Positions 25,265 to 36,945 of a stretch of 59,425 bases of DNA are shown in pieces. Source of the DNA: a virus. Taxonomy: Duplodnaviria; Caudoviricetes. The notes beneath the pieces are model-generated. The model was not told the origin of the DNA. It saw nothing but the letters and a program-made list of their open reading frames with translations, and did no database searches. Both the position numbers and the translations under genes were made by a program. The stretch is taken from IMG/VR virus record IMGVR_UViG_3300049144_000150, positions 1 to 59,425 of that record; one strand, written 5' to 3'. Every line of letters starts with the position of its first letter. The stretch's first letter is position 1.

Positions 25265-25338
25265 TGGCAGGTAGCTCAGTCGGTTAGAGCGCGCCTCTGA
25301 TAAGGGCGAGGTCGAAGGTTCGATCCCTTCTCTGCCAA
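25265..25338 (+). tRNA. tRNA-Ile(GAT), no encoded CCA
   Basis: Acceptor TGGCAGG/TCTGCCA; D arm GCTC/GAGC; anticodon arm CGCCT-CTGATAA-GGGCG; T arm GAAGG-TTCGATC-CCTTC; discriminator A. Confidence 0.9.
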
Positions 25339-25526
25339 CTGGACCGGAAGTCGCGGATGTCAGGCACGGCACGGATTTCCGGTCCGCCCTTCAGCACCCG
25401 CCCACACCTGGCACAGTCGGTGTGGGCGGGTGTCCAAAAGCCACAGAGGAGTTCGCGATCAGGCGCGCGGGGTTTGGGCACCCCGTTTCGCGAATTCCGC
25501 CAAGTCCCCCATGGCAGGCGGGGGCA

Positions 25527-25597
25527 GCCCGTGTTGTGTAATCGGCAGCACGCCATCTGGAGGGGTGGAGGTGCGGGTTCAAAGCCCGCCACGGGCT
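25527..25597 (+). ncRNA. tRNA-like RNA with non-canonical 6-nt anticodon loop
   Basis: Perfect acceptor GCCCGTG/CACGGGC, D arm GTGT/GCAC, T arm GCGGG-TTCAAAG-CCCGC; CCATC/GGTGG stem closes TGGAGG. Confidence 0.75.
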
Positions 25598-25687
25598 CTT
25601 GGGCAGGGGTGGAAGAAGAGTCCATTGATCCGCGTAGAAATCATGACCCCTGTAAGCGGATCTGGGTCAGCGTTGATTGCGCTGACA

Positions 25688-26149: not shown

Positions 26150-26626
26150 ATGTCGGCGGCAGTACTGTTCTACGGGTACAACCTGGGTGCTCCGGAGGAC
26201 TCCGGCTGGGCGCTCAAGGTGGACACCCCTGACTTCAGGGCCGACACCGACTTCGAGCCCGAGTGGCTGACCGAAGCCGAGGCGGCCGATGAAGACCTCG
26301 TCGAAGCGATGCGCCGGGCCATCCTGATCGCGTCCGGTGTTCCTGAGAGTGAAGCCGTGGTGAACCGAGTCCCCGGACTCAGTCTCGACGACCTCCTGGC
26401 CAAGCGCTGCGGTGTCCGGCTGCTCACCTGCGGCCACTCCAACTCCCCCTTCTACGGCCTCGCCCTGGCCGACACCGTCCACCAGGCCGACGACTGGACC
26501 CCCAAGTGCATCGCCCCCACGGCGCGGTGCGCGAACCATGAGCCGCTGGACAAGGCCCTGGAGGCGCTGGACATGAAGCCCGCTCAGCGCCACCCCTCCT
26601 GGATCCTGGCGCCGGAAGAGTTCTAA
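26150..26626 (+). CDS. Hypothetical protein
   Basis: AAAGGAG RBS, high GC3. Confidence 0.7.
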   Translation: MSAAVLFYGYNLGAPEDSGWALKVDTPDFRADTDFEPEWLTEAEAADEDLVEAMRRAILIASGVPESEAVVNRVPGLSLDDLLAKRCGVRLLTCGHSNSPFYGLALADTVHQADDWTPKCIAPTARCANHEPLDKALEALDMKPAQRHPSWILAPEEF

Positions 26627-26632
26627 ATAAGG

Positions 26633-26662
26633 TTGCGATCCCGTCGCAGGATCCCGTAGTCT
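26633..26662 (+). promoter_or_regulatory. Promoter for the Y RNA array
   Basis: TTGCGA-18 bp-TAGTCT; predicted +1 near 26669-26671, where Y RNA 1 begins. Confidence 0.65.
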
Positions 26663-26670
26663 TTTTCTTA

Positions 26671-26746
26671 GCACCCGGTGTGAAGGCAACGGTTACTTCT
26701 TCTGCAAAAGGAACCCAAACCGTAGCCGCTTCGGTTAACCGGGGGC
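26671..26746 (+). ncRNA. Y RNA 1, minimal form (Ro-binding stem, no tRNA-like domain)
   Basis: CCCGGTGTGA...CGGTTACTTC...GGTTAACCGGG motifs shared with the two following RNAs; adjacent to Ro60. Confidence 0.75.
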
Positions 26747-26753
26747 GTCAACT

Positions 26754-26919
26754 TCACAGTGGTTCTGGAGTCGTTCGGTGTGATAGTGACGGTTACTTCA
26801 CCTCTGGAGTGAGTAGTCCGGTTCAAATCCGGCGACGGCGAAAGCCCGGTAGTGTAACGGCAGCACGCTAACGTTCCCGTTGCGACTTGGTTAACCGGAC
26901 GGCCCCAGAATCACTGTGA
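26754..26919 (+). ncRNA. Y RNA 2, YrlA-like with a permuted tRNA mimic (CTG anticodon-like loop)
   Basis: About 26-bp terminal stem; GGTGTGA/TTAACC; TTCAC-CTCTGGA-GTGAG; CCGG-TTCAAAT-CCGG; GAAA-capped acceptor; TA-GTGT-AACGGCA-GCAC D arm placed after the T arm. Confidence 0.85.
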
Positions 26920-26921
26920 TG

Positions 26922-27093
26922 ATGTACGCAGACAAACCGGCTGGTGTGTAAGCATCAGTTACTTCCGGTAATCTCTAGGTCGTTGGTTCGAATCCAATCC
27001 GGTGCCGAAAAGCTCCGGTAGCTCAGTTGGCAGAGCAAGAGACAAAATGTCACTGATGCGATTTGGTTAACCAGCCGGTCTGCCTGCGTACAT
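26922..27093 (+). ncRNA. Y RNA 3, YrlA-like with a permuted tRNA mimic opened in the anticodon loop
   Basis: ATGTACGCAG/CTGCGTACAT and ACCGGCTGGT/ACCAGCCGGT stems; GGTAA-TCTCT-AGGTC-GTTGG-TTCGAAT-CCAAT; CCGGTGC-CGAAAA-GCTCCGG; TA-GCTC-AGTTGGCA-GAGC-A-AGAGA. Confidence 0.88.
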
Positions 27094-27098
27094 AAGAT

Positions 27099-27129
27099 GC
27101 CCCCTCCGCCCGGAGGGGGCTTTCTTTTT
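27099..27129 (+). terminator. Intrinsic terminator between the Y RNAs and the ligase gene
   Basis: GCCCCCTCCG/CGGAGGGGGC stem followed by TTTCTTTTT. Confidence 0.8.
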
Positions 27130-27150
27130 GATCGGAAACGGAGAAAGAAC

Positions 27151-27909
27151 GTGACGACGTTGGCGATGACAGATCTTCGGATCCTGAACAGCGCGACGAA
27201 GTACCCGGAGATCCTGACCTACCACGCACTCGGCGAACGCGGTCGCCTCACCGACAGCCTGACGGCGACGTTCGACGGCCCCACGCTTCTCTTCGAGAAG
27301 GTCGACGGAACCAACATCCGGGTCATCAAGGACGGAACCGGCGACTGGATCATCGGCAGTCGCGAGGATCTGCTGACCGCCAAGGGAGACCGGGTGGCCA
27401 ACAAGTTCGAAGGCGTCGTCGAAGCGCTGGGTGACCTGCCGGACCGTCTGCCCGACCCCTTCAACCAGGCTCGCGTGTACTACATGGAGGTCTACGGCGG
27501 CCGGATCACTGGCAACGCGAAGAACTACTCGAAGTCCGGAGCGACGGGCTTCCGCATCTTCGACGTGGCGACCGTGCCGCTGAACCTCTTCACCCACTGG
27601 ACCCTCGACCAGGTGTCCGGCTGGCGCAAGCGGGGGGGCCAGGAGTGGTTCCCCTGGGACCAGGTCCAGGCGCTCGTCGGAGGGCTCGACGGCATCGAAA
27701 CAGTCCCCGAGCTGGGCCGGTGCGACGCCACCGAACTGCCGACCGAGCATCAGACCACGCTCGACTGGCTGGAGCGCAAAGCCCCGAAGACGCGCTGCGG
27801 CCTGACCGAACAGGGCCCGGCCGAAGGCATCGTGCTGCGGTCGCCCGACCGCTCGCAGATCGCCAAGGCCCGCTTCCAGGACTACCGCCGCACCCTCGGC
27901 ATCAAGTGA
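27151..27909 (+). CDS. ATP-dependent RNA ligase, Rnl2-like nucleotidyltransferase domain
   Basis: Motif I FEKVDGTN, III YMEVYG, IIIa FRIFDV, IV AEGIVLR, V IAKAR; no OB-fold tail as in DNA ligases; GGAG RBS, GTG 27151. Confidence 0.85.
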   Translation: MTTLAMTDLRILNSATKYPEILTYHALGERGRLTDSLTATFDGPTLLFEKVDGTNIRVIKDGTGDWIIGSREDLLTAKGDRVANKFEGVVEALGDLPDRLPDPFNQARVYYMEVYGGRITGNAKNYSKSGATGFRIFDVATVPLNLFTHWTLDQVSGWRKRGGQEWFPWDQVQALVGGLDGIETVPELGRCDATELPTEHQTTLDWLERKAPKTRCGLTEQGPAEGIVLRSPDRSQIAKARFQDYRRTLGIK

Positions 27910-27953: not shown

Positions 27954-29552
27954 ATGGCCCGCTTCAACACCAAGACGACCCAGCCGAAGGCGAAGGCCCC
28001 GGTCACCGGCACCTCTGTGAACCACGAGGGCGGCACGGGCTACACCCTCCCGGAGAAGGGCGAACTGTTCAACCTCGCCACCGTCAACTTCGTCGGCCAG
28101 GACACCTTCTACGAGAAGGGCAACGCCCGCGACGCCCGCTACAACGGACTCGTCGAGAGCATCGCGGTCGCCGACTGGCCGTGGCTGCACGGCATGCTGC
28201 CGTGGCTGCGCTCCGACGCCAACATCCGCACCGCCTCCCTCACGGGCGCCGCGCACGCCGTGCACCGCCGTCTGGAGGCCGGTCAGTACGACGACAACGC
28301 TGCGCTGGTCGACTCCGTCATCCAGCGCGCTGACGAGGTCGGCGAGTTCGCCGCGTACTGGCTCGCCACCTTCGGCGGCGTCATGCCGAAGCCGGTCAAG
28401 AAGGGCCTGGCGATGGCGATGCGCCGTCTGTACACGGCCCGCAACGTCCTGAAGTGGGACTCGGGGGCGCGCGGCATGCGCTTCGCCGACGTCATCAACC
28501 TGGTTCACCCGAAGCCGCGCGACTCCGAGCAGGAGGCGCTGTGGAAGTACCTGCTCGACGAGCGCGGCCACAAGGACGGCGACGTCAACACGGTGCCGAT
28601 GATCGCCACCCGCAAGCGGTGGTACGACGAGTTCTCCGACGAGCAGAAGCTGGCCTCGCTCCGCGACGGCTCGGCGTTCCGCGACTTCGGTCTCACGTGG
28701 GAGAACGCGTCGTCCGAGCTGAAGGGCCGGGTCGGCGAGAAGGTGCTGTGGGAGGCGATGGCTCCGCACCTGCCGTACATGGCCGCCATCCGCAACCTGC
28801 GCAACATGGACGAAGCGGGCATCTCGTACGCCACGGCCAACAAGCTGGCGGCGCGGATCGCGGACCCGGCGGAGGTGGCCAAGTCCCGGCAGCTCCCGTA
28901 CCGGTTCCTGTCCGCCTACCTGGCGGCGCCGAGCGACCGCTGGAAGGGTGCACTGGAGGAGGCCATCAACCTCTCCCTGAAGTCCGTTCCGGAGCTGCCG
29001 GGGCGCACGCTGGTTCTGGTCGACACCTCGGCGTCGATGAACGGCATGGGCTTCTCGGCGAAGTCGAAGGTCACCCCGGCCATGGCGGCGGCGATCTTCG
29101 GGTCCATCCTGGCCCAGCGGAACCCGGGCCGGGTCGAGCTGTACGGTTTCGCCAACGGCGTGTTCAAGCACGACGTCAAGGCGGGCCAGGGCGTCCTGTC
29201 GGCGGCTCAGAGCTTCGTCCGCCGCATCGGCGAGGTCGGCCACGGCACCGAGATGACCGCGTCCGTCCGCCGGGCGTTCGCCGGTCACGACCGCGTGTTC
29301 ATGATCAGCGACATGCAGTGCTTCGCGGACTCCGCCGGTCGCGGCTTCGGCGACGGAGGGTACGGCAGCAACCCGGTTCCGGTGCCGGACGGCACGAAGG
29401 TGTACGGCGTCAACCTCGGCGGCTACGCCAAGACGGCGATCGACAGCCGAATCAAGAACCGGTTCGAGTTCTCCGGGCTGACCGACCAGGTCTTCCAGCA
29501 GATCCTCGCGCTGGAGGCCGGGTTCGCCGAGAAGTGGCCGTGGGTCGCGTAA
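27954..29552 (+). CDS. rsr: Ro60/Rsr (TROVE plus vWA) Y-RNA-binding protein
   Basis: VNHEGG.GY, DTFYE, NIRT, DVINLVHPKP, TWE, YMAAIRNLRNM, SRQLPYRFLSAY; vWA VDTSASM and ISDMQ. Confidence 0.95.
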   Translation: MARFNTKTTQPKAKAPVTGTSVNHEGGTGYTLPEKGELFNLATVNFVGQDTFYEKGNARDARYNGLVESIAVADWPWLHGMLPWLRSDANIRTASLTGAAHAVHRRLEAGQYDDNAALVDSVIQRADEVGEFAAYWLATFGGVMPKPVKKGLAMAMRRLYTARNVLKWDSGARGMRFADVINLVHPKPRDSEQEALWKYLLDERGHKDGDVNTVPMIATRKRWYDEFSDEQKLASLRDGSAFRDFGLTWENASSELKGRVGEKVLWEAMAPHLPYMAAIRNLRNMDEAGISYATANKLAARIADPAEVAKSRQLPYRFLSAYLAAPSDRWKGALEEAINLSLKSVPELPGRTLVLVDTSASMNGMGFSAKSKVTPAMAAAIFGSILAQRNPGRVELYGFANGVFKHDVKAGQGVLSAAQSFVRRIGEVGHGTEMTASVRRAFAGHDRVFMISDMQCFADSAGRGFGDGGYGSNPVPVPDGTKVYGVNLGGYAKTAIDSRIKNRFEFSGLTDQVFQQILALEAGFAEKWPWVA

Positions 29553-29867: not shown

Positions 29868-30145
29868 AGGCCGTCAGTGGGCACTGGTTCCGGGCGGACT
29901 ATAGCGACGAGCCGTGCCGCTTCCCCGATTGCGGGCGCCCGCAGGATGAGCACGTGGAGTCCTGCGGCGAATGGATGGATCCCCGGCACGCCTTCCGCCC
30001 CACCCTGTCCAGCCGGAATGGCTTCCGCTGCTCCCGCTGCGGGCGTCGCTGGGGGCACTCGACACACTTCGGAAGCCGGAAGAACCGGTCCTTGTGGTGG
30101 GACCGATGGAACGGCTTCTGGGACACGGTGAGGAGAAGGAAATGA
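29864..30145 (+). CDS. Small Cys/His-rich (Zn-binding) protein
   Basis: C...CGR...H and C..CGR...H motifs; translational coupling. Confidence 0.55.
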   Translation: MKAVSGHWFRADYSDEPCRFPDCGRPQDEHVESCGEWMDPRHAFRPTLSSRNGFRCSRCGRRWGHSTHFGSRKNRSLWWDRWNGFWDTVRRRK

Positions 30146-30525
30146 AGAACCGGACCATTCAGCTCGGCGGCGAGACCTTGAAGCCCGGCGACACCGTGGT
30201 GGTGTTCACGGCTAGCGGCGGCAGGTCGGAGCGGCCCATCACGAGGATCGGCACCAAGCGGATCTACCTCGACGGCTATGGCAGCGAGGTCGCCTTCGAG
30301 ATCGACACCCGCAAGGAGGTCGGATACGTCGCCGGGTACATCCCGCACTTCAAGACCCACAAGGAAGTGGCCGCGATGGACCGGCGCCGGGATCTGGTGC
30401 TCAAGCTCCGCGAGTTCGGCCTTCAGCCCGTGGACGGCGCACTTGGCGACCTTGGGCAGCACTCGGACGAAGCCCTGGAGGACGTCCTTGCGGTGCTGTT
30501 GAAACACCGCAACACCAAGAACTGA
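30142..30525 (+). CDS. Hypothetical small beta-barrel-like protein
   Basis: AGGAG RBS; LKPGDTVVV..ITRIGTKRIYL. Confidence 0.65.
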   Translation: MKNRTIQLGGETLKPGDTVVVFTASGGRSERPITRIGTKRIYLDGYGSEVAFEIDTRKEVGYVAGYIPHFKTHKEVAAMDRRRDLVLKLREFGLQPVDGALGDLGQHSDEALEDVLAVLLKHRNTKN

Positions 30526-34950: not shown

Positions 34951-35259
34951 GTGAACGACCTGAGTGCTCTCGCGGCCCGGTTCCTGGATGTCCTGGCGGA
35001 AGCCCAGAAGGAACGTCCGCAGCGAGACGGCCTGATCGAAAGGGCCGACGGTTACCCCGAGCTGGAGTGGGCCGCCTACGAACGAGGCGTCATGCAAGCG
35101 GAGGTGAACCGGGTCCGGGCGAAGGGCGGGCGTGAGCCGATCCCGCTGGCGCTGGTCGAGCGGGTGGAGAGCCAGGCGGCCGGTCACTCGGACTACTCCT
35201 ACAAGTTCGCCCTGTACTGCGCCGAGCTGGCTCTCGGTGTGTCACGACAGACGTACTGA
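34951..35259 (+). CDS. Hypothetical protein (A.GHSDY..KFALYCAEL motif)
   Basis: GAAAGGAG RBS, GTG 34951. Confidence 0.65.
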   Translation: MNDLSALAARFLDVLAEAQKERPQRDGLIERADGYPELEWAAYERGVMQAEVNRVRAKGGREPIPLALVERVESQAAGHSDYSYKFALYCAELALGVSRQTY

Positions 35260-35278
35260 CGGAAAGGGAAGGAGCGGC

Positions 35279-35929
35279 ATGAAGATCTACGAGGTTCTTC
35301 TGCGGGTCGAGGCGGACAGTGACGTCACGGCCACGCGCATCCGTGATGAGATCTACGACGCGTGCGGCGACGTGCCGTTCGGGTTCGACGTCGAGACGGT
35401 CGACCCGAAGATGGTCTCCCTCGCGGAGGTCGACCGGTTCGCGGAGCGGGCGCACATGGGCCAGTTCGACAAGGGTGGCGTGCCCTACGTCGAACACGTG
35501 CGAGCCGTGGCTGCCGGGCTGGAGCCGTTCAGCACCCGGCTCCAGATGGCGGGCCTGCTGCACGACGTGATCGAGGACACCGAGTGGACCGCCGAGACTC
35601 TGCGGGCGGCGGGCGTCGAGAGCCGGGTCGTGCGGATCGTCGAGCTGGTCACCAAGGAGCAGAGCGAGTCCTACATGGACCGCATCCGCAAGATCTCCCA
35701 GGATCGCGAAGCGACGCTCGTGAAGATCGCGGACAACGCGCACAACAGCCGCGCGGACCGGGCGGCAGCACTGCCCGACGGCAACCGCAGCCGCCTGGAG
35801 CGGTACCGCAAGGCCCGCGAGATCCTGTGGGCCGCCGTGAAGCCGGAGGAGGTCGAGGAGATCATCTCGATCGTCAACCCGGACCTCCTGGCCGAGTACC
35901 GCCAGTACCTTCCGGGGTGGAACTGGTGA
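35279..35929 (+). CDS. Mesh1/SpoT-type HD hydrolase (small alarmone hydrolase-like)
   Basis: HMGQFDKGGVPYVEH, AGLLHDVIEDT and VKIADNAHN motifs. Confidence 0.88.
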   Translation: MKIYEVLLRVEADSDVTATRIRDEIYDACGDVPFGFDVETVDPKMVSLAEVDRFAERAHMGQFDKGGVPYVEHVRAVAAGLEPFSTRLQMAGLLHDVIEDTEWTAETLRAAGVESRVVRIVELVTKEQSESYMDRIRKISQDREATLVKIADNAHNSRADRAAALPDGNRSRLERYRKAREILWAAVKPEEVEEIISIVNPDLLAEYRQYLPGWNW

Positions 35930-36165: not shown

Positions 36166-36945
36166 GTGATGGGTGACAACACCGCACTCGGTGACCGCAT
36201 GAAGAGCTACGAAGCCGTCCAGAGGACCGTCCTGCCGCGCCGGACGTATACGCTGATGCGTCTCGACGGCAGGGCCTTCCACACCTACCTGCGGGGCGCC
36301 GACAAGCCCTTCGATATGCAGTTCATCAAAGACATGGCCGCCGTCGCCGAGGCTCTGTGCGCGGAGATCAGCGGCGCCGTGTTCGCCTACACCCAGTCGG
36401 ACGAGATCAGCCTGCTGGTCACGGACTTCGCGTCGCCCCAAACCCAGCCCTGGTTCGGCGGGGTCACGGCCAAGATGCTCTCCGTCTCCGCATCGCTGGC
36501 CACGGCCGTACTCAACGAGCGGCGCCCGGGAAGACGTGCGCTGTTCGACGCCCGGGTCTTCACCCTGTCCGACCCGGTGGAGGTGGCCAACTACTTCCTG
36601 TGGCGACAACGCGACGCGGTCAGGAACTCCATCTCGATGGCGGCCCAGGCGCACTTCTCGCACAAGCGGCTGAAGGGCGTCGACAGCGACGGCATGCAGG
36701 AACTTCTGTGGTCCGAGGCGGGCGTCAACTGGAGCGAGTACCCCGCAGAGTGCAAGCGGGGCAACGTCTCGGTCCGCAAGGTGGGCGAGCGTCCGGTGGA
36801 GTACTTCGACAAGCGCATCCAGGAGACGGTGCAGACCGTGGCCACCCGTTCGTGGTGGGAGACGACTCCCGCGCCGCACTTCACGCTGAACGCGGACGGC
36901 TGGCTGACTGAGGTGATCCCGCCCCTTCCCCGCCTCGGGGAATGA
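36166..36945 (+). CDS. tRNA(His) guanylyltransferase Thg1-like protein (3'-5' polymerase)
   Basis: RMKSYE, RLDGRAFH, YTQSDEISL, FDARV and YFLWRQRDAVRNSI motifs. Confidence 0.95.
   Translation: MMGDNTALGDRMKSYEAVQRTVLPRRTYTLMRLDGRAFHTYLRGADKPFDMQFIKDMAAVAEALCAEISGAVFAYTQSDEISLLVTDFASPQTQPWFGGVTAKMLSVSASLATAVLNERRPGRRALFDARVFTLSDPVEVANYFLWRQRDAVRNSISMAAQAHFSHKRLKGVDSDGMQELLWSEAGVNWSEYPAECKRGNVSVRKVGERPVEYFDKRIQETVQTVATRSWWETTPAPHFTLNADGWLTEVIPPLPRLGE

Follow-up and report, generated by a model that had tools for sequence, protein, structure and literature searches.

What are the three structured RNAs that lie upstream of a Ro60-type gene in a phage genome? The question concerns positions 26671-27093 of the IMG/VR virus record IMGVR_UViG_3300049144_000150, a stretch of 59,425 bases that was analysed as a whole and is called the window here. 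A first-pass annotation of this segment, made from the letters alone, had proposed three Y RNAs that share a Ro-binding stem, carry different inner modules and are released from one transcript. Our analysis indicates that 26671-27093 very probably holds three tandem structured Y RNAs of the bacterial YrlA/YrlB class, situated beside rsr. The record, which is ~31% complete by estimate, comes from a large Streptomyces phage whose nearest kin are phage contigs of 251-260 kb, followed by the cultured Satis group.

Three RNAs share one handle and lie beside rsr

The three RNAs, each with its most probable class, and the gene of their presumed protein partner are as follows:

26671-26746, + strand: RNA 1, a short YrlB-like Y RNA, handle at 26677-26699
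26754-26919, + strand: RNA 2, a Y RNA with a tRNA-Gln-like module, handle at 26777-26799
26922-27093, + strand: RNA 3, a canonical YrlA-type permuted tRNA mimic, handle at 26943-26965
27954-29552, + strand: rsr, the Ro60 orthologue (Pfam TROVE PF05731, E 5.8e-16; PHROG 850)

The handle, GGTGTG-N8-RGTTACTTC, occurs once in each RNA and nowhere else in the 59,425 bases (3 matches, against 0.00 expected from 100 shuffles). Likewise, GGTTAACC is found only at 26733, 26889 and 27065, where 0.25 matches were expected and none of 100 shuffles reached 3. The 5', internal and 3' motifs that had been described as common to all three RNAs are therefore present far above chance. Moreover, the array ends 861 nt before the rsr start on the same strand, which is well within the ~4 kb used as a proximity criterion for YrlA. 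The rsr product, which shares 72% identity with a Streptomyces phage Satis protein named 'Ro-like RNA binding protein', is the presumed partner of all three RNAs. The TROVE gene, together with a YrlA match on RNA 3, bears out the reading of three Y RNAs beside Ro60 that have a handle in common and each carry a different inner module.

We then asked whether the structure is maintained in homologous loci. Five arrays were aligned (the window, the IMG/VR phage contigs L005 and L006, Satis, and the soil metagenome contig L010) and a structure was derived with RNAalifold. It comprises 140 pairs; 96.7% of the cells are paired and both sides have changed in 29 pairs, so that the covariation for which the earlier annotation had called is indeed seen. 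None of 500 shuffles reached this pairing, and slid controls were 34-44% paired. The arrays of the distant phages JustBecause, Kela and Frankenweenie follow the same plan, a short RNA and then two with long stems, with unrelated stem sequences, which gives independent support for the structure.

RNA 3 has the anatomy of YrlA

In published accounts, YrlA has a T and a D stem-loop with a closed acceptor stem between them, and its open anticodon stem runs into the Rsr-binding stem (10.1101/312249; PMC4201824). The elements of RNA 3 are:

26922-26944 with 27071-27093, + strand: terminal stem, 23 positions, mismatches at 26935/27080 and 26932/27083; 5 of 21 pairs changed on both sides
26972-26976 with 27038-27042, + strand: open anticodon-like stem, 5 bp; 4 pairs changed on both sides
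26982-26998, + strand: T arm; 3 pairs of its stem changed on both sides
26999-27018, + strand: closed acceptor-like stem, 7 positions; 4 pairs changed on both sides
27021-27036, + strand: D arm

RNA 3 thus matches the YrlA anatomy exactly, with the four elements present and three of them covarying. The anticodon stem that had been drawn from the two ends of the RNA exists as the open 5-bp stem, and the fold is well below background (z -5.83). The Rfam YrlA model RF02553 aligns end to end (model positions 1-114) with 26952-27062, at 41.7 bits and E 9.4e-8. With the same model, chromosomal actinobacterial YrlAs beside rsr scored 42.2 bits (Krasilnikovia, L023) and 40.1 bits (Lentzea, L015), and the relatives L005 and JustBecause 39.1 and 36.3 bits, respectively. 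The metazoan Y_RNA model of Rfam gave no match in 26671-27093 at E up to 10.

RNA 1 and RNA 2 carry other modules

RNA 1 is the simplest of the three. Besides the handle, we located two parts in it:

26697-26713, + strand: hairpin of 5 bp with the 7-nt loop CTGCAAA (26702-26708)
26733-26740, + strand: GGTTAACC in the 3' strand

Its inner helix pairs GGC.ACGG with CCGT.GCC, with 2 pairs changed on both sides in the five arrays; pairing of the hairpin among these arrays amounts to 95.8%. The terminal stem, if one counts from the C(C/T)GG anchor outward, has 5 positions, a mismatch and then 2 more. Neither a T arm nor a D arm was found, in line with the earlier description of an RNA without a tRNA domain. 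The same handle, the covarying inner helix and TTACTTCTTCT followed by a small hairpin make it a short Y RNA of YrlB type; the hairpin, with its 5 bp and its loop CTGCAAA, is anticodon-arm-like. A D arm made from GCAACGGTTAC was also considered and ruled out, since ACGG pairs with CCGT and this pairing covaries.

The elements of RNA 2 are as follows:

26754-26778 with 26895-26919, + strand: terminal stem, 25 positions, one A.C mismatch at 26769/26904; 9 of 25 pairs changed on both sides, 97.6% paired
26797-26813, + strand: closed anticodon-like arm, a 5-bp hairpin with the 7-nt loop CTCTGGA (26802-26808)
26818-26832, + strand: T arm, with a 4-bp T stem
acceptor remnant, + strand: 3 bp, capped by GAAA
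26852-26866, + strand: D arm

RNA 2 folds with a z of -4.60, its minus strand being weaker (z -3.29). The closed loop CT-CTG-GA that had been noticed from the letters was recovered as the 7-nt loop of the closed 5-bp hairpin; it is invariant in the five arrays while the stem beneath it varies. Between the T arm and the D arm, both included, the core is nearly invariant in these arrays and hence silent on covariation. Both halves of RNA 2 were compared against 39 tRNAs. The D half is closest to an odd tRNA of the window (25527-25598), with 24 of its first 27 bases matching, next to an 86-nt tRNA-like gene, and then to phage tRNA-Gln(ctg) and tRNA-Glu(ctc), which tie. The half with the anticodon-like and T arms is closest to the tRNA-Gln(ctg) of a Gordonia phage. 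The label 'Gln-type' given to this RNA therefore holds on wider grounds: RNA 2 is a tRNA-Gln-like domain in rotated order that retains a closed anticodon-like arm. This likeness fits the published idea that YrlA originated from tRNA dimers (10.1101/312249).

The odd tRNA itself, the second of the two upstream of the array, has a 6-nt anticodon loop according to ARAGORN. Its homologues (L010:160-245, L008:807-892, L007:321-406, L006:1799-1870 and L001:3725-3794) are labelled variously as His, Arg, Ser, Pyl or undetermined; in three relatives the homologue is 86 nt long and an extra hairpin replaces the anticodon loop. Instead of taking part in decoding, it may be a further tRNA mimic, and from the base matches the D half of RNA 2 looks as if it had been copied from it.

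GenBank annotates a tRNA-Cys (L008:1835-1905) inside Y RNA 2 of JustBecause and a 91-nt tRNA-Pro (L007:2745-2835) inside Y RNA 3 of Frankenweenie, and ARAGORN reproduces both. Such annotation implies that the RNAs are decayed tRNA genes or tRNA dimers with no role related to Ro60, and the resemblance of both RNA 2 halves to tRNA-Gln and the neighbouring odd tRNA, as well as the published derivation of YrlA from dimeric tRNAs (10.1101/312249), could be taken in the same sense. We consider this explanation very improbable. ARAGORN and the Rfam tRNA model called no tRNA in 26671-27093, their two calls in the window being 25265-25339 and 25527-25598. The order of the arms is rotated, the acceptor is closed by a loop and there is no free 3' end. 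Moreover, the RNAs share a handle that is not of tRNA type, their long stems covary, and the linkage to rsr is kept in 8 phage arrays and 62 of 80 bacterial loci. The tRNA-Cys and tRNA-Pro of the relatives are probably annotation errors to which the tRNA-like portions of their Y RNAs gave rise.

The handle is that of actinobacterial Y RNAs

We examined 80 actinobacterial rsr loci (L014-L093) for the handle. TTACTTC was found upstream on the rsr strand in 62 of them (none in 18, one copy in 27, two in 21 and three in 14), and in these 62 loci a near-identical handle, CCGGTGCG(A/C)..GGTTACTTC, is present in 1-3 copies upstream of rsr. Nearly every TTACTTC copy is preceded by CCGGTGCG(A/C)(A/G)G at constant spacing. 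The 5' motif and the 'internal' motif are therefore one conserved module, whose two ends correspond to the GNCGAA-type Rsr motif and the conserved YUAY of Chen 2014 (PMC4201824). Several copies of TTACTTC are also present next to rsr in phages of Streptomyces (GiJojo), Gordonia (Rabbitrun) and Arthrobacter (Atuin), and rows of three or more Y RNAs are ordinary.

A looser handle pattern yielded 109 modules from the 80 loci. GGTGCG is present in 105 of them, as GGTGCGC in 50 and GGTGCGA in 48; the GGTGTGA of the window occurs in 1. One Krasilnikovia handle equals that of RNA 1 over 26 bases except for a single C/T base. This same position is T in all three RNAs of the window, L005 and L006, and C in all three of Satis and L010. 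It is also C at all three corresponding places on contigs of a relative from 'metatranscriptomic' runs that were flagged 'probably DNA'. The clade of the window thus differs from the family handle only by a C-to-U change, in all three RNAs, and such a thrice-parallel change suggests that a shared partner selects for it or that the three genes have been copied from one another. The handle of JustBecause, Kela and Frankenweenie is different (CCGGAGCGT with TGTTGGCCGG).

A probable single transcription unit

The array is framed by two putative signals:

26633-26662, + strand: promoter-like site, TTGCGA, an 18-nt spacer and TAGTCT, with a predicted start at ~26669-26671
27099-27130, + strand: intrinsic terminator, a 9-bp G+C-rich stem (8 G-C pairs) followed by a T run

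The promoter-like block is conserved in all five close arrays and also in the distant JustBecause and Frankenweenie; in blastn comparisons with the distant phages, only 26600-26704 of the window is covered. By the consensus, we read it as a putative promoter of the housekeeping type. Its spacer holds an inverted repeat (GATCC..GGATC, overlapping GCGA..TCGC) that is kept across all arrays and might serve as the operator to which a regulator of Y RNA expression binds. The terminator after RNA 3 is the sole terminator of the array and is conserved in the five arrays, and the spacers between the RNAs measure only about 7 and 3 nt. With one conserved promoter-like site and one terminator, a single precursor for the three RNAs is likely, and this part of the proposed release from one transcript stands. 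Single precursors are also described for YrlA/YrlB of M. smegmatis and Yrn1/Yrn2 of D. radiodurans (PMC4201824).

The terminator ends 20 nt before the start of an RNA ligase gene that precedes rsr, so that ligase and rsr probably depend on read-through. This proximity, and the fact that no separate promoter was seen, would also suit an array that acts mainly in cis, as a leader of the ligase-rsr message in which the handles are Rsr sites for autocontrol through terminator read-through or precursor stability. In Satis, L005, L006, L010 and Frankenweenie, the array even adjoins rsr directly. We regard a mainly cis-acting leader as improbable, because the terminator is strong, the tRNA mimic and the loops are conserved far beyond the needs of a binding site, and the characterised relatives accumulate as free Rsr-bound RNAs according to PMC4201824. 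It should be noted that the two roles are compatible and not exclusive.

Several observations weigh against the assignment to YrlA/YrlB RNAs made from one precursor. The fold of RNA 1 is marginal (z -1.74, with 11 of 200 shuffles equally good). RNA 3, at 41.7 bits, stays below the YrlA gathering score of 69, and RNAs 1 and 2 have no match, for RNA 2 at E up to 10; as for RNA 3, the 69-bit threshold of Rfam misses the whole actinobacterial branch, of which those tested score ~40 bits. The handle of the window lacks the C of the published GNCGAA-type motif: GGTGTGA/T is close to the YrlA motif GNCGAAN0-1G without being the same letter for letter, and the Satis-type handles and 98 of the 109 bacterial ones read GGTGCGA or GGTGCGC. 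The tested structure was derived from the same five sequences, which fall into two clades (3 + 2), so that most double changes may be single events. A strict sigma-70 promoter scan listed no site at 26633-26662. No sequencing run recorded as RNA contains the stretch; two of the 'metatranscriptomic' runs flagged 'probably DNA' yielded short contigs of the C-type relative that cover ~26626-27087 and then continue into unlike sequence; RNA ends are not visible in such contigs. Finally, an RNase III domain was found in none of 5 related phage genomes, and RNase III cutting of the precursor would therefore need the host enzyme.

The bulged G depends on the pairing register

The first-pass annotation had paired GGT[G]TGA with TTAACC, leaving a bulged G where metazoan Y RNAs bulge a C. 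It had drawn from this a Ro60 recognition element in which G replaces the metazoan C, on adaptors released by RNase III-type cuts in the long duplexes. The G itself is invariant in all 15 RNAs of the five arrays and in 105 of the 109 bacterial handles; as part of GGTGCG it is a family-wide trait and no peculiarity of the window.

The pairing fares less well. With YGA opposite TTA, 36 of 45 cells are paired and C stands opposite A in all six C-type RNAs (6 of 15). If YGA is paired instead with the conserved TTG four bases upstream, 40 of 45 cells are paired and the G faces a four-base loop. In neither register is any pair changed on both sides among the 15 RNAs, and the GGT/ACC part of the handle never varies across the five arrays and is thus silent on pairing. 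The register with the bulge is therefore not favoured, and the bulged G is an unproven, register-dependent model rather than an observation. Bacterial Y RNAs cannot settle the register, as their 3' strand reads ..YYGATCTCGG instead of TTGGTTAACC and cannot form the helix with TTA. Moreover, Ro60 reads mainly the 5' strand according to Chen 2014 (PMC4201824), and the helix may be dispensable.

Taken as a whole, the combination of a G-bulge recognition element with RNase III release is doubtful in our view. The likeness of the 5' strand to metazoan GGUCCGA, a sequence that Chen 2014 likewise connect with the bacterial motif (PMC4201824), the invariance of the G, and long, covarying duplexes with a positioned mismatch agree with it; the A-C oppositions, the better pairing of the other register, the bacterial 3' strand and the reading of the 5' strand by Ro60 do not.

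Long stems with a fixed mismatch

The terminal duplexes of about 24-26 bp that had been claimed for RNAs 2 and 3 are present as gap-free ladders of 25 and 23 positions. By a strict count, lower stems of at least 20 pairs are found in 18 of the 109 bacterial modules, and the median is 11 bp in the modules with a T arm. By the same count, the lower stems of RNAs 2 and 3 in the Streptomyces phage arrays that were scored are constantly 22-32.

We compared 16 long-stem RNAs, two from each of eight phage arrays. A mismatch is located ten positions below the anchor in 15 of the 16, and at position eleven in RNA 2 of Frankenweenie. In 14 cases A faces C; in the other two, the RNAs 3 of Satis and L010, C faces C. 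A further mismatch, at position 13, is found in the RNA 3 of nearly every array. Since the fixed mismatch is kept across lineages whose Rsr proteins are only 37% identical, it probably has a function, which could be that of a ruler or a block for a double-strand nuclease or that of a contact site for a protein.

Duplexes of this length suffice for RNase III. The fixed mismatch and the long stems plausibly fit the RNase III idea without proving it. We tentatively propose, as a quite possible course, that the host RNase III would cut RNAs 2 and 3 distally in their stems of 23-25 positions. Single-strand cuts in spacers of 4-7 nt, by which the stems would be kept, are possible too, at a somewhat lower probability.

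Gene neighbourhood and relatives

The genes examined in the window all lie on the + strand. From 5' to 3', the order is an FtsK-like gene, tRNA-Ile(gat), the odd tRNA-like gene, an open reading frame of 158 aa, the array, the ligase, rsr and a ProQ-C-like gene. The neighbours with coordinates are:

25265-25339, + strand: tRNA-Ile(gat), a tRNA prediction
25527-25598, + strand: odd tRNA-like gene
27151-27909, + strand: RNA ligase gene (Pfam PF09414, E 7.8e-17; PHROG 548)
29971-30525, + strand: gene of a ProQ-C-terminal-like protein (PF24203)

The 158-aa reading frame just upstream of the array has no family match in Pfam or PHROG. The ProQ-C-terminal-like gene lies ~420 nt downstream of rsr, a position kept in the relatives, and its product is a possible further RNA-binding partner. 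The relatives are ranked by the identity of their Rsr to that of the window:

86-88%: IMG/VR phage contigs L005 and L006 (251 and 260 kb)
72%: the 186-kb Streptomyces phages Satis, Kradal, Quantum and EhyElimayoE
71%: L010, a single soil metagenome contig
37-40%: JustBecause, Kela and Frankenweenie

In the window, JustBecause and Kela, the ligase gene occupies the interval from the Y RNA terminator to rsr. It was not found in 4 of 5 related genomes searched (Satis, Frankenweenie and two 250-kb relatives), and a PDB sequence search with the ligase protein gave no match. The ligase of the window is 73% identical to that of JustBecause at the equivalent place (L008:2229-2981), which makes it an outlier between these two phages, as the flanking proteins are 36-54% and Rsr 37% identical. 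By these identities the ligase looks like a mobile accessory gene that targets the spot between array and rsr. We also considered a swap of an Rsr-plus-handle module between lineages and rejected it, since the 37% identity of Rsr to JustBecause falls within the 36-54% of its neighbours.

Further downstream, ~7-9 kb from rsr, are a Thg1-like gene (36166-36945; tRNA-His guanylyltransferase family, an enzyme of the tRNA 5'-end repair type) and an HD-domain gene (35132-35929). Together with the ligase, the tRNA genes and the Y RNA genes, they make this a phage region rich in tRNA-handling functions. The array, the ligase, and the Thg1-like and HD-domain genes might even form a phage countermeasure to tRNA damage, an idea to which we assign a low probability. 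The loops CTGCAAA of RNA 1 and CTCTGGA of RNA 2 would then mimic anticodon stem-loops, either as decoys for host anticodon nucleases or as guides by which Rsr and repair enzymes reach broken tRNAs. In the two phage lineages, these two loop types are carried by different scaffolds. Between JustBecause and Frankenweenie, the middle bases of the 7-nt loops differ (CTG versus CAT, GCA versus GGA) and the flanking loop bases are fixed, which hints at such a countermeasure and is offered as a lead only.

Comparison with known systems

The closest parallel is M. smegmatis, an actinobacterium in which several Y RNAs lie upstream of rsr on the same strand and derive from one precursor (PMC4201824). There, one RNA resembles RNA 3 in being a permuted tRNA mimic whose closed acceptor stem has 7 bp, and a simpler hairpin RNA resembles RNA 1; Rsr is assumed to bind at the conserved 5' motif, and, as here, a YUAY comes after the handle helix. 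The window differs in having three RNAs in a phage, T for C in the handle, and lower stems of 23-25 positions in RNAs 2 and 3. With YrlA of Salmonella Typhimurium (RF02553), of which a crystal structure is available (10.1101/312249), the array shares the T arm, the closed acceptor, the D arm and the open anticodon stem, whereas RNA 2 retains a closed anticodon-like arm that this YrlA lacks. The rsr-yrlBA-rtcBA operon of Salmonella (PMC7790460) also places an RNA ligase next to rsr, although the ligase here is of the ATP type (PF09414) and not RtcB.

In phages, Y-like RNAs immediately upstream of Ro60 have been reported as YrlA-like RNAs of mycobacteriophages (PMC4201824) and as Yrl1/Yrl2 of Thermus phage phiLo, for which capture of the host PNPase is the proposed use (PMC12135203). 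In contrast to these, the present case belongs to a Streptomyces phage lineage and has a three-RNA array and a different handle. None of these RNAs is annotated as a Y RNA in the Streptomyces phage records examined, and we found nothing on them in the literature on Ro-like proteins and Y RNAs of Streptomyces phages; the supplementary phage table of Chen 2014, outside this coverage, may list some. Metazoan Y RNAs resemble the array in their 5' strand (GGUCCGA, compared with GGT-N-YGA) and in combining a terminal stem that holds the Ro60 site with a variable inner module. They differ from it in that the RNAs here have four extra bases in the 3' strand, in the better-pairing register, and tRNA-like inner modules.

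The first-pass annotation had regarded the three RNAs as a modular adaptor set. A shared handle with three different modules agrees with this; the idea is not new, as it equals the standard published Y RNA model, in which the tRNA-like domain of YrlA is the effector side and the terminal stem the Rsr side (10.1101/312249). Beyond Rsr-bound Y RNAs, the following scheme is drawn by analogy with D. radiodurans, Salmonella and phage phiLo. One transcript of ~460 nt would run from the promoter-like site to the terminator, with read-through probably supplying the ligase-rsr message, and the precursor would be cut into the three RNAs. Each RNA would dock on the phage Rsr via its handle, and the inner modules would tether Rsr to host RNA enzymes, either PNPase, which a phage Ro60 with its own Y-like RNAs binds in the host (PMC12135203), or tRNA-binding enzymes. 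Such tethering may redirect RNA decay or tRNA quality control during infection.

Significance

The finding is thus a phage YrlA/YrlB array beside rsr, an expected, known system. The new details are the parallel C-to-T variant of the handle, lower stems of unusual length that hold a fixed mismatch, a complete tRNA-Gln-like anticodon arm kept on a Y RNA, and the neighbouring ligase. GGTGCG followed by TTACTTC 8-16 nt later marks Y RNA genes upstream of rsr, as in the 62 of 80 loci, and standard annotation misses this branch.

Phage-encoded Ro60/Y RNA systems are known and barely studied. Cultured Streptomyces phages (Satis, Kradal, JustBecause and others) carry the three-RNA array, either unannotated or mis-annotated as tRNAs. 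They constitute a tractable system for the cutting of Y RNA precursors and the role of the long stems and their fixed mismatch, and also for what a tRNA-Gln-like Y RNA recruits and whether an RNA ligase cooperates with Ro60 in a phage.

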